64,000 bases of DNA from positions 3,254-67,253 of the forward strand of contig JBMFNP010000003.1 in the NCBI GenBank assembly GCA_049970095.1, read 5' to 3'. Origin of the DNA: Thermoplasmata archaeon (lineage in GTDB: Archaea > Thermoplasmatota > Thermoplasmata > Lutacidiplasmatales > SKW197). This document shows, piece by piece, positions 25,074 to 30,147 of this stretch (position 1 is the stretch's first letter; every line of letters starts with the position of its first letter). The position numbers were made by a program, and so were the translations under genes. The notes below the pieces were generated by a model. That model saw only the letters and a program-made list of their open reading frames with translations, made no database searches and was not told the DNA's origin.

Positions 25074-25907
25074 TTATTTTTTCTTTCCCTTCTTCTCTGT
25101 TTTCTGGACTACATGGTTGGGACAATTGGCGTTAAGAGGTACTTCCAGCACTTCAAACACATTTCTATAACCATCATAGTATATAAGATTTTGAGGGAGC
25201 GCCGCATACTCTTTTGAAATAATTTTTATCCCACAGAGCACTTGAAGAGCTGCAATTACTGCAGTAGTTGTGATTTCTGCAGGGAGTTTGGGGGAGTATA
25301 TAGTTACATCTTCTCTGCCAGAGCATGAAAATACTTGTTCCAAATTTTTGAAATGGGTTTTGTTCATTCCACATTCTATGCATGATGTGCGGGGTGGAAT
25401 TACAACCTGTACTTTACCAGAAGTACCCAGAGTGCCTCCATCCACCAGGGGAATGCCATAATAATATGCATGGGAATTTATATACAGTCTTGCCATGATG
25501 TTATCCAGACACCCAAAGATTATATCAAACTGTTTGAGAAAATCATCTGGTAATTCCTGAATGGGTTTTGAATACCATGAAACCTTTATACTTTTATCCA
25601 GGTTTTTCAATTCTCTTGCAAGAACTTCCGCTTTCAGTAGCCCCTGCTCTGCATCTTCTATCCGGAAAAGTGCACATCTGCTTAAATTTGATTTGACAAT
25701 TTTGTCCATGTCCACAATAGTTATATTTTTAAAACCTGAGAGTACAAGATTTTTTCCCACCTCATTTCCAAGTGCACCTGCACCCACGATGAGTGCCTTA
25801 CTTTTCAGAATTTGATTGAACTTAATCCACGGAATTCTTTTTTCTCTATCAAACATATCTTCGTCATGCATTCCAACTTTCAGCAACTTTCGTGTTTTTC
25901 CGCCCAT
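25074..25907 (-). CDS. E1-like ubiquitin-activating enzyme (ThiF/MoeB/HesA family, minimal single-domain form)
   Basis: The Rossmann segment is 'ALIVGAGALGNEVGKNLVLSGFKNITIVDMDKIVKSNLSR'. The conserved 'GCLDN...R' region is present. The Cys cluster is 'CIECG...CSG...CPNH'. The ATG directly abuts the JAB stop. Confidence 0.8.
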   Translation of the reverse strand: MGGKTRKLLKVGMHDEDMFDREKRIPWIKFNQILKSKALIVGAGALGNEVGKNLVLSGFKNITIVDMDKIVKSNLSRCALFRIEDAEQGLLKAEVLARELKNLDKSIKVSWYSKPIQELPDDFLKQFDIIFGCLDNIMARLYINSHAYYYGIPLVDGGTLGTSGKVQVVIPPRTSCIECGMNKTHFKNLEQVFSCSGREDVTIYSPKLPAEITTTAVIAALQVLCGIKIISKEYAALPQNLIYYDGYRNVFEVLEVPLNANCPNHVVQKTEKKGKKK

Positions 25908-29064: not shown

Positions 29065-30147
29065 TCATTCCCCCTCTCGGATACCACCTTCTGGGTCTGG
29101 AATTAACTCCATCAGGTCTCCATCTCTTATGTCTGCTTCCTCTACCTTTGTTTCTCCTCGAAGTATTCGCTTTCCCTTGCGGAGCACATAAACTCCGATA
29201 TTCTTTTCCCAGTATGTGCCTACACTTTCTATAATCTCGTCTATTGTGTTGTCTGGTTCAAGTTCCATGTCAATCGAAGCTCCTGTCTCTGCATCTCTTA
29301 CTTTAACCCTTATTGACATTTCTTCCACCACCTTTTTTTCTGATTCTTCTTTTCCTTTACTCACATTACCGTCAGTGTGAAGCATTCGGAATTTTTGCAT
29401 GATGATTTCAAAACTCTCCTTCTGCTCCTCAGGAGTCGCAATTTCCCCTTCCTCCTCTTCCTCCCCGACAGGAACACTTATTCCCGCCTTTTTGTAATCA
29501 ATCACCTCAAGATACTGTTTCAGGGTTTCTATTTCCTTTTTGCTGAGCACAATTGGAGAGACATGAACAATAAATACACCGTTGTTAACTGAAACCATAT
29601 CCACTACTCCTTTAACAAAATCAATCACTTTTTCAAATCCGTTAGCAGTTATCAGAAGCCCTATGGCATCCAGAATAATTGCCGCCTTATCATTATTCTT
29701 GACAAATTCCCCTAATATGTATGTCATTTCAAATTCTAGGCGCTGGGGGTCAAGAGTTTTCTCCTTTGTAAGTGTAGATGTAAGCCAGTAAATTCCGTCA
29801 ATGTTTATATTGTATTTTTTTCTGATTTTTCTGGGATTGCTTTTTGTGAGGCAGAGCCCTGCAAACCCAGCGTCTAAGAGGTCTTTGAAGAGTTTATAAG
29901 CCAGATTTTCATCTTCAACAATATAACTCCCACCAGACTCCAGGATGCTTGTAGGCTTTGAAACTGCGAATTTTGCCCCACAGTGCGGACACACTTCATC
30001 CAGTTCACCTACCTCTCCATTGCATATTGGGCAAAGAAAAACCTCTTCAAAGAGTTCTTTGCCACAGGACGGACAGATAGTTGAATCCCTTGGAATATTT
30101 TTTCCGCAATAAGGGCATTTGGTAAGCTCAGCACCTTCGTTGGTCAT
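29065..30147 (-). CDS. fusion protein: N-terminal double zinc ribbon + DUF835-like (KaiC-like pseudo-ATPase) domain + acidic linker + C-terminal ubiquitin-like beta-grasp domain ending ...GG-IREGE
   Basis: The Zn ribbons are 'CPYCGK...CPSCG' and 'CPICNG...CPHCG'. The middle domain ('IYWLTS...LDPQRL...AAIILDAIGLL...VIDFVKG') matches DUF835 topology. The last 84 aa ('MSIRVKVRDAETGASIDMELEPDNTIDEII...LRKGKRILRGETKVEEADIRDGDLMELIPDPEGG') align in pattern with ubiquitin (beta1, the I44-patch region, and a terminal GG). The likely start is the Met at 30147; the first 40 codons of the listed ORF look non-coding. Confidence 0.7.
   Translation of the reverse strand: MTNEGAELTKCPYCGKNIPRDSTICPSCGKELFEEVFLCPICNGEVGELDEVCPHCGAKFAVSKPTSILESGGSYIVEDENLAYKLFKDLLDAGFAGLCLTKSNPRKIRKKYNINIDGIYWLTSTLTKEKTLDPQRLEFEMTYILGEFVKNNDKAAIILDAIGLLITANGFEKVIDFVKGVVDMVSVNNGVFIVHVSPIVLSKKEIETLKQYLEVIDYKKAGISVPVGEEEEEGEIATPEEQKESFEIIMQKFRMLHTDGNVSKGKEESEKKVVEEMSIRVKVRDAETGASIDMELEPDNTIDEIIESVGTYWEKNIGVYVLRKGKRILRGETKVEEADIRDGDLMELIPDPEGGIREGE

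Follow-up and report, generated by a model that had tools for sequence, protein, structure and literature searches.

Complete archaeal operons that combine ubiquitin with E1, E2 and deubiquitinase (DUB) genes are central to the debate on the origin of the eukaryotic ubiquitin system, in which attention has so far gone mainly to those of Aigarchaeota and Asgard archaea. Here we analyse an operon of ubiquitin-like (Ubl) conjugation genes from a Thermoplasmata archaeon. It occupies positions 25074-30147 on the minus strand of a 64,000-nucleotide stretch of DNA (assembly GCA_049970095.1, contig JBMFNP010000003.1), which we refer to as the window. In the eukaryote-like operon of Caldiarchaeum subterraneum and Asgard archaea, ubiquitin is accompanied by an E1, an E2, a small RING finger protein and an Rpn11 homologue (PMC3082918, PMC5654768). 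Caldiarchaeum Rpn11 must strip the propeptide before the E1 acts, and E1 and E2 auto-modify (PMC5654768). The Caldiarchaeum E1 is large, with inactive and active adenylation domains, a Cys domain and a C-terminal Ubl/ubiquitin-fold domain (UFD; PMC5654768 supplement). The same supplement describes an archaeal "Cluster III" and related bacterial Ub/E1/E2/(RING)/JAB operons, and cites surveys by Iyer, Burroughs and Aravind for them.

Two bacterial systems are also relevant. The BilABCD operons (Type I and II) are accessory, and their role in defence has been demonstrated. Their genes run in the order Ubl-E2-DUB-E1, and the predicted task of the JAMM protease is to process the Gly-ended Ubl beforehand. 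Some Bil Ubls are extended at the N-terminus, and it has been proposed that the extensions cause targets to aggregate or mislocalise. The Bil E2 has a conserved Cys with an adjacent His (CEHH in Type II) and no HPN motif, and BilD has an inactive adenylation domain (PF14459) at its N-terminus as well as an α-helical Cys domain (PMC10557695). In type II cyclic-oligonucleotide-based antiphage signalling systems (CBASS), Cap2 ligates a whole enzyme, the CD-NTase, via its C-terminus, and a JAMM protease, Cap3, trims and reverses the conjugation (PMC10557695).

Our interpretation of the window operon, to which we assign a probability of roughly 0.6, is that it is a lineage-specific, rearranged and fused derivative of a eukaryote-like conjugation system, carried on the chromosomes of uncultured Thermoplasmatota and working as an E3-independent pathway.

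Four consecutive minus-strand open reading frames (ORFs) fill the operon, as seen in both the ORF list and the sequence. They encode, in order, a Ubl fusion protein (gene A), an E2, a JAMM protease and an E1. The TGA of gene A (29067-29065) is separated from the GTG of the E2 gene (29061) by 3 nt, and the TAA of the JAMM gene (25910-25908) directly abuts the E1 ATG at 25907. These junctions agree with an earlier note on this DNA, which was made from the sequence alone. That note also gave a 35-nt overlap between the E2 and JAMM genes, which is correct only if the JAMM protein starts at TTG 28553. We favour ATG 28538, which leaves an overlap of 20 nt, because it yields the N-terminus conserved in the family, M-x-[KR]-P-[KR]-I-V-G-E. 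Upstream of gene A is a divergent intergenic region of 110 bp (30148..30257, minus strand). It contains AT-rich, TATA-like elements (TTATATATTT at 30194-30185 and TTGTTATATT at about 30178-30169), and a G-rich stretch resembling a Shine-Dalgarno (SD) sequence, GGGTGAGAAGGGG, precedes the ATG; we consider this region a putative promoter. At the 3' end, a convergent gene stops 12 bp from the stop codon of the E1 gene. As previously noted, the flanking genes encode surface proteins (Kelch/Ig, PrsW, β-propeller/fn3 and PKD/OB). Scans of the window for tRNAs and Rfam families gave no matches.

The Ubl is not encoded by a gene of its own; it is the C-terminal domain of a 360-aa, 40-kDa zinc-ribbon/DUF835 protein (gene A, 29065..30147) that NCBI annotates as "DUF835 domain-containing protein", free Ubls of the family being annotated as hypothetical. 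Pfam detects DUF835 (E 1.8e-25), Zn_ribbon_3, DZR and, weakly, the YukD β-grasp model. The protein begins with a double zinc ribbon (residues 9-58; 29974..30123) that has four CxxC pairs and matches DZR, Zn_ribbon_3 and Zn_Ribbon_1. The DUF835 domain follows (residues about 74-215; 29503..29928). It scores above the cut-off for PF05763, an inactive KaiC-like family, has a RecA/KaiC-like fold and lacks the Walker A motif (P-loop). A low-complexity acidic linker (residues 216-276; 29320..29502), with a predicted local distance difference test score (pLDDT) below 50, connects it to the Ubl β-grasp domain (residues 277-355; 29083..29319). The Ubl ends in ELIPDPEGG, followed by a C-terminal propeptide, IREGE (29068..29082), which is a predicted substrate of the JAMM protease.

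Structure prediction confirms the fold of the Ubl. In an AlphaFold2 model of full-length gene A, residues 74-215 form an α/β domain (pLDDT 84-92), residues 222-276 of the linker are disordered, and residues 279-350 form a confident ββαββ..β domain. The 84-aa Ubl domain alone, modelled with 40 homologues, has the same ββαββ..β topology (pLDDT 87.4). Foldseek matched this model to SUMO1, Hub1, Caldiarchaeum ubiquitin and ubiquitin with query-normalised TM-scores (TMq) of 0.78-0.82, the value for Caldiarchaeum ubiquitin being 0.82, and the top PDB match of the full-length model was also Caldiarchaeum ubiquitin (6fno_D, E 5e-7). MoaD, ThiS and SAMP were absent from the top 50 structural matches of the Ubl. 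All of 40 family members share the C-terminal ELIPDPEGG without change. Proteins of the family either stop at GG or continue into tails, 1 to about 35 residues long, that are not conserved. An invariant ELIPDPEGG followed by a stop or a variable tail is the sequence signature of a putatively processed, activatable C-terminus.

The E2 (180 aa; 28519..29061) has a canonical UBC fold. It matches UQ_con (PF00179, E 1.9e-13, 50.7 bits against a 27-bit cut-off) and no other Pfam family, and its closest solved structures by sequence are UBE2A/Rad6 (E 3.6e-12). The HPN motif (H89-P90-N91), C102, W109 and P129-N130 are invariant across 20 E2 homologues. Initiation at GTG 29061 yields MPLPIEVLR, the N-terminus typical of the family, and the protein ends in a C-terminal tail with PKIVGG.

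The JAMM/MPN+ protease (25908..28538) is 876 aa long from ATG 28538. An N-terminal PRIVGE tail and the JAMM domain are followed by a zinc ribbon and then by a predicted coiled coil of about 600 aa. The protein matches the eukaryote-type JAB family (PF01398, E 3.9e-14, 52.9 bits against 22.5), Prok-JAB being under its own cut-off. Its best PDB matches by sequence are yeast Rpn11 (3.7e-14) and the Caldiarchaeum Rpn11 homologue 6fjv (3.1e-12), followed by CSN5; no Bil protease is among its 43 PDB matches. Alignment to Rpn11 places the catalytic domain at residues about 52-175 (28014..28385), with the predicted catalytic residues E76 and then H139-x-H141-x7-S149-x2-D152. The zinc ribbon (C238-x2-C241 ... 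C252-x2-C255; 27774..27827) is recognised by these cysteines and by weak Pfam zinc-ribbon matches (E 0.0025-0.01). The coiled coil (25929..27746) is predicted from a composition of ~50% E/K/R/D/Q with nearly no Pro or Gly, and from heptad occupancy. Matches of the JAMM protein to SMC, LmuB and JetC fall on this charged helical region and were rejected as compositional. A strong skew on the plus strand at 26001-28000 (GC skew -0.376, AT skew -0.402) is caused by the purine-rich Glu/Lys codons of the coiled coil on the minus strand and is not a replication feature. At 58-60 kb, in the position of a Rad50/SMC-like gene, a comparable skew has the opposite sign.

It should also be noted that the C-terminal tail of the E2 (28522-28566) and the N-terminal tail of the JAMM protein (28505-28538) carry a common motif, [KR]x0-1[KR][IV][IVL]G/x[DEG]. 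In the window it reads ...APKIVGGTEDG in the E2 and MAKEKPRIVGESKKE..EPP in the JAMM protein; typical family members have ...DRRIRIVGD and MARPKIVGETKRP. In 81 related loci (numbered within L001-L091), 51% and 53% of the tails fit the strict motif, compared to at most 1% in shuffles. The shared motif is not an artefact of the gene overlap, because the two copies use different nucleotides in different frames. It could be a docking peptide for the UFD-less E1, or a strand resembling a SUMO-interacting motif that binds the Ubl.

The E1 (277 aa; 25074..25907) is a single ThiF-fold adenylation domain. Residues 31-263 match Pfam ThiF (E 1.7e-52), besides a weak match to Shikimate_DH. Pfam detected no UFD, inactive adenylation domain or rhodanese domain in this protein. 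The GxGxxG loop (residues 41-46), C176-x2-C179, the invariant crossover-loop Cys195 and Cys262 are conserved in 55 family E1s. By PDB match the protein is nearest to the active adenylation domain of human UBA1 (2.3e-31) and to UBA3 (about 4e-27), followed by ThiF (8e-14), MoeB (3e-12) and Cap2 (2e-7). None of the NCBIfam models reaches its cut-off (ThiF 109 vs 275 bits, MoeB 69 vs 377, UbaA 70 vs 450). Taken together, sequence or fold support was obtained for all four activities. The earlier note had described a complete set of Ubl, E2, JAMM and E1 in one operon, comprising a β-grasp Ubl with GG and a tail, a UBC-fold E2 with HPN...Cys, a JAMM protease with HxHx7Sx2D and a ThiF/MoeB-type E1, and this description is confirmed. 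In particular, the 84-aa domain is a β-grasp and the E2 has the UBC fold, the two structural points on which that note had said it could fail.

The operon belongs to a large archaeal family. A scan of one genome per GTDB species with the E2 found relatives in 194 stretches, 80 of which were listed; all 80 come from Thermoplasmata/Thermoplasmatota. Among 121 close database relatives of the E2, the named ones are all metagenome-assembled genomes (MAGs) of Thermoplasmata, Thermoplasmatota or Methanomassiliicoccales, and "Thermoplasmata archaeon" assemblies contain a 100% identical copy. ORFs were called in the 80 loci and screened with the domains of the window operon. Nearly all of these loci have a triad of Ubl (62-90 aa), E2 and JAB (about 210 aa). 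The E1 gene is mostly immediately 5', giving the order E1-Ubl-E2-JAB in most loci; otherwise it is more distant. No additional conserved small gene was found on the same strand at the surveyed loci. We clustered the flanking genes of 83 non-redundant loci and counted them in the 72 that have a flanking JAB gene. An AP_endonuc_2-like gene, a SIS-domain gene and the genes for ribosomal proteins L18e and L13 recur in 30-43 of the 72. Such a conserved neighbourhood is in keeping with vertical inheritance on the chromosome and not with a defence module that is mobile.

The architecture seen in the window, [zinc ribbon-DUF835-Ubl]-E2-[JAB-zinc ribbon-coiled coil]-E1, is limited to a small subclade of the family. 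The subclade consists of the window species (several assemblies), L005, L010/L050, L011/L013, L012 and L030. Its fusion proteins are as little as 44% identical, and their linkers are unalignable and differ in length; nevertheless, they are always in frame, and all fusions keep PDPEGG and a tail of 1-15 residues. The 350-390-aa fusions were missed by a profile search for the Ubl family in 1.84 billion representatives, and their count rests on the locus survey. The genes that flank the fused operons are ordinary and vary between members. No second, canonical operon from the same MAGs is among the 80 listed loci. Because the order Ubl-E2-JAB-E1 is limited to this small subclade of a family that is mostly E1-Ubl-E2-JAB, we conclude that it is a secondary, derived rearrangement. 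The rearrangement coincided with two domain accretions, the fusion in gene A and the coiled coil of the JAMM protein.

Compared to the Caldiarchaeum/Asgard type, the window operon has in common an archaeal operon organisation, a ubiquitin-like β-grasp with GG and a propeptide, an Rpn11-type JAMM protease and an HPN-containing UBC E2. It differs in having no RING E3 and an E1 of a single 277-aa adenylation domain, in the fusion of the Ubl to a zinc ribbon and DUF835 and of the JAMM domain to a coiled coil, and in its host, which belongs to the Thermoplasmatota and not to the TACK or Asgard archaea. The earlier note had set the operon apart from Caldiarchaeum-type clusters. This is true of the missing RING E3 and the minimal E1; however, the Ubl, the JAMM protease and the E2 are closest to Caldiarchaeum or eukaryotic proteins. 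The operon also resembles Cluster III, which is UFD-less and likewise comprises Ubl, E1, E2 and JAB; the Thermoplasmatota family may or may not be part of that cluster, for which the text of the supplement names no taxa. A difference from Cluster III and the related bacterial operons is that the window proteins are nearer to eukaryotic UBC, UBA1 and Rpn11 than to the Prok-E2 or Prok-JAB models. The SAMP/UbaA and Urm1 systems resemble the operon in their GG-ended β-grasp modifier, compact MoeB-like E1 and JAMM desampylase (the window protease has a weak NCBIfam desampylase match, 28.6 bits). Those systems use no E2, whereas the window E2 is canonical and translationally coupled to the Ubl. CBASS Cap2/Cap3 offers a precedent for E1/E2 conjugation of a full-size protein instead of a small tag. 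Cap2, however, is an E1-E2 fusion of the Atg7/Atg3 type and the protein it conjugates has no β-grasp, while E1 and E2 are separate genes in the window, where no CD-NTase was found. In the searchable full-text literature, the family was found only as a "Ca. Thermoplasmatota E2" clade in one phylogeny (bioRxiv 10.1101/2023.07.25.550441), and no description was found of the operon itself, of the fusion of DUF835 to the Ubl or of the JAMM protein with its coiled coil.

From gene content, motifs, folds, family distribution and synteny we infer the following enzymatic steps, fate of the fusion and biological role. By analogy with Caldiarchaeum, whose cascade has been reconstituted (PMC5654768), the Rpn11-type JAMM protease would trim IREGE and expose the C-terminal Gly-Gly. 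The compact ThiF-fold E1, probably a homodimer, would then adenylate the terminal glycine, and its crossover-loop Cys195 may hold the modifier as a thioester. The modifier would be handed to Cys102 of the HPN E2, which would move it onto target lysines without a dedicated RING E3. The JAMM protease could also undo the conjugation, with its long coiled coil possibly serving to scaffold or localise the tethered enzyme. The N-terminal part of gene A would supply targeting, oligomerisation or cargo in place of an E3; to let its domains choose or cluster the targets is the most economical proposal. For the pathway as a whole, a housekeeping or regulatory role is the most likely, and not an antiviral one.

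Because a JAMM protease cuts after GG, it cannot free the C-terminal Ubl from the part that precedes it, so the whole fusion should be conjugated. Besides the ligation of an entire enzyme by Cap2, the Bil Ubls with N-terminal extensions are a precedent for this (PMC10557695). In the fused subclade, therefore, the attached entity is most likely the whole 40-kDa protein. We can extend this tentatively, at less than even odds, to a self-targeting modifier. The 40-kDa protein of zinc ribbon, inactive KaiC-like domain and Ubl would be trimmed by the JAMM protease and ligated via its C-terminal glycine to lysines of its targets or of itself, its KaiC-like/zinc-ribbon part would select or cluster the targets and make an E3 unnecessary, and the coiled-coil protease would organise or limit the resulting assemblies.

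A feature of the linker suggests a different fate for the fusion. In the window (29317-29332) the linker ends in an SD-like motif, GGTGGTGG, placed 5 nt before an in-frame ATG exactly at the Ubl boundary, and L011 and L012 have the same arrangement. In L005 (803-823) a perfect AAGGAGG is found 8 nt before an in-frame GTG at the boundary, although the surrounding linker is unrelated to that of the window. Furthermore, the ancestral state of the Ubl is a free protein of 62-90 aa. The gene could thus have two products. The free 84-aa Ubl from the internal start at 29319 would be the modifier, and the long isoform would remain unconjugated, its Ubl binding E1, E2 or JAMM protease non-covalently so that the isoform serves as an adaptor or decoy, like eukaryotic UBL-domain shuttles. 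We consider this unlikely. The boundary codon is ATA in L030, which is not a start, and in L010 it is an ATG with a weak SD motif. The reading frame is kept through highly divergent linkers in all lineages, which argues that the fusion itself is under selection, and GG with a cleavable tail is kept in all fusions. The SD motif and start codon at the boundary could be used for internal initiation, or they could be a relic of the ribosome-binding site of the ancestral Ubl gene.

The earlier note had compared the operon to Bil-type antiviral systems, leaving open whether its role was housekeeping or antiviral. In an antiviral role analogous to that of BilABCD, the bulky Ubl would be conjugated to a virion protein and so block assembly or infectivity. 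As in BilABCD (PMC10557695), the genes of the window run in the order Ubl-E2-DUB-E1, a JAMM protease accompanies a Gly-ended Ubl, and the Ubl, like some of the Bil Ubls, is extended at its N-terminus. The subclade operon has also left the conserved neighbourhood and now lies among surface-protein genes. The gene order is as claimed; the kinship it implied is not supported. The window E2 belongs to PF00179 and has HPN-x10-Cys in place of CEHH, and the E1 has no PF14459 domain. PADLOC matches are weak or partial (E2, E 0.012; JAB, 6e-5), that of the E1 covering only the adenylation part (residues about 31-148) of CBASS Cap2 E1-E2 models. On the E2 motif, the E1 architecture and these matches, membership in the Bil group was rejected. 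No relatives of the E2 were found in IMG/VR, and no defence genes were found in the flanks of the operon; the genes of the window are housekeeping and surface-protein genes. Since the family is chromosomal, lineage-wide and syntenic beside ribosomal-protein genes, we favour the housekeeping or regulatory alternative, and regard an antiviral role as improbable.

A further alternative, that the E1 activates the β-grasp protein for thiocarboxylation and not for tagging, as in MoaD/ThiS/SAMP-type sulfur-carrier pathways, is very improbable: the E1 is of MoeB/ThiF size (277 aa), has the CxxC zinc-site cysteines and matches the NCBIfam ThiF equivalog at E 1.8e-31, but all its NCBIfam scores are far under their cut-offs, no rhodanese domain was found, its partners are a canonical E2 and an Rpn11-type DUB, and the Ubl matches ubiquitin, SUMO and Caldiarchaeum ubiquitin and not MoaD or ThiS, so this reading was rejected.

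Several points count against an E3-independent eukaryote-like pathway acting on the whole fusion. First, gene A could also give rise to a free Ubl, which might be the real modifier, although not generally, given the ATA codon in L030. Second, the E1 taken alone is ambiguous, because its NCBIfam ThiF E-value equals that of the PDB match to UBA1. Third, no RING family was matched at E <= 0.01 in the four operon proteins, so that no E3 was found; this is in line with the earlier note, which had seen no RING or U-box. The nearest RING-like Pfam scores, Prok-RING_1 (E 0.051) and IBR_1 (E 0.069), both fall on zinc ribbons. We also rejected the idea that gene A hides a RING E3 in its double zinc ribbon, whose CxxC pairs are ~10 residues apart, unlike those of a cross-brace RING. 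Fourth, the MAGs are incomplete, and an E3 or a second canonical operon may lie elsewhere in the genome. Fifth, the double zinc ribbon was modelled by AlphaFold2 as two small hairpins of modest confidence (pLDDT 52-74), and the coiled coil of the JAMM protein is a prediction from composition. Finally, the enzymatic activities of the family are predicted here from sequence and fold, and its targets are hypothetical.

If the tentative proposal of a self-targeting modifier is correct, the window encodes a ubiquitin that has the size of a full protein and directs itself to its targets. It would occur in archaea far removed from the Asgard lineage, within a previously undescribed, lineage-wide system that lacks an E3, and this would bear on the origin of the eukaryotic cascade. 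The Thermoplasmatota family combines HPN E2s and Rpn11-like proteases with a minimal E1 and no E3, which is a simpler arrangement. The fused subclade is in effect a natural experiment, in which the Ubl is fixed to a KaiC-like scaffold and the deubiquitinase to a 600-aa coiled coil. It raises the questions of whether a ubiquitin-type cascade can move whole proteins, and whether the N-terminal domain of a modifier can stand in for an E3.

Some relatives depart from the usual architecture. Protein P0217 (1684 aa) has a FYVE-like zinc finger, tetratricopeptide repeats, a Glu/Lys-rich coiled coil, a GG-less member of the Ubl family and DUF835. Its domain composition is an independent hint of a functional link between DUF835 and the Ubl. 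P0207 is a direct Ubl-GG-E2 fusion, and P0212 is a tandem di-Ubl with a hydrophobic C-terminal stretch, a putative transmembrane segment. Other combinations are Ubl with FHA (P0209), Ubl with vWA and a zinc ribbon (P0256), E2 with a zinc ribbon (P0082), and Ubl with a weak zinc-ribbon match under its cut-off (P0228; Zn_ribbon_8, E 0.0048). Zinc ribbons, which recur on several components, may be Ubl-binding or targeting modules. Gene content also varies. L075 (5405-6510) has two tandem E2 genes with no adjoining Ubl or JAB gene, L080 and L090, both from the MAG CBFDAW01, have an E2 only, and in L089 a 510-aa protein with two JAB-matching stretches is encoded downstream of the E2.

Elsewhere in the window, the plus strand at 13951-14496 encodes a protein of 181 aa that contains several CxxC pairs and matches the FYVE zinc finger of Pfam above the cut-off (E 2.6e-7), which is unusual for an archaeon. 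It is a matter of speculation whether this cross-brace-type finger, 11 kb from the operon, is a RING-like partner; P0217 begins with a similar finger. A bona fide KaiC-family ATPase (632-1333, plus strand; PF06745, E 4.7e-61) contrasts with the P-loop-less DUF835 of gene A. A second DUF835 gene indicated at 41160-41864 by a phmmer screen was spurious; Pfam assigns it to ATP-grasp_5, part of an ADP-forming acyl-CoA synthetase. A pair of genes for an Mre11-like phosphoesterase and a Rad50-like ATPase lies at 56220-60231 (plus strand), and topoisomerase VI subunit B is encoded at 43264-45249 (minus strand). These genes, like the KaiC-family gene, are ordinary chromosomal genes. Beyond the putative promoter region of the operon, at 30926-33946 on the plus strand, is a gene whose predicted product, a surface protein of 1006 aa, combines a PKD domain with repeated modules that resemble OB folds; two more OB-fold ORFs follow at 33886-35750. 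Two long internal repeats of about 200 aa in the 1006-aa protein look identical by eye in translation, and could reflect a recent duplication or a collapse or expansion in the assembly.

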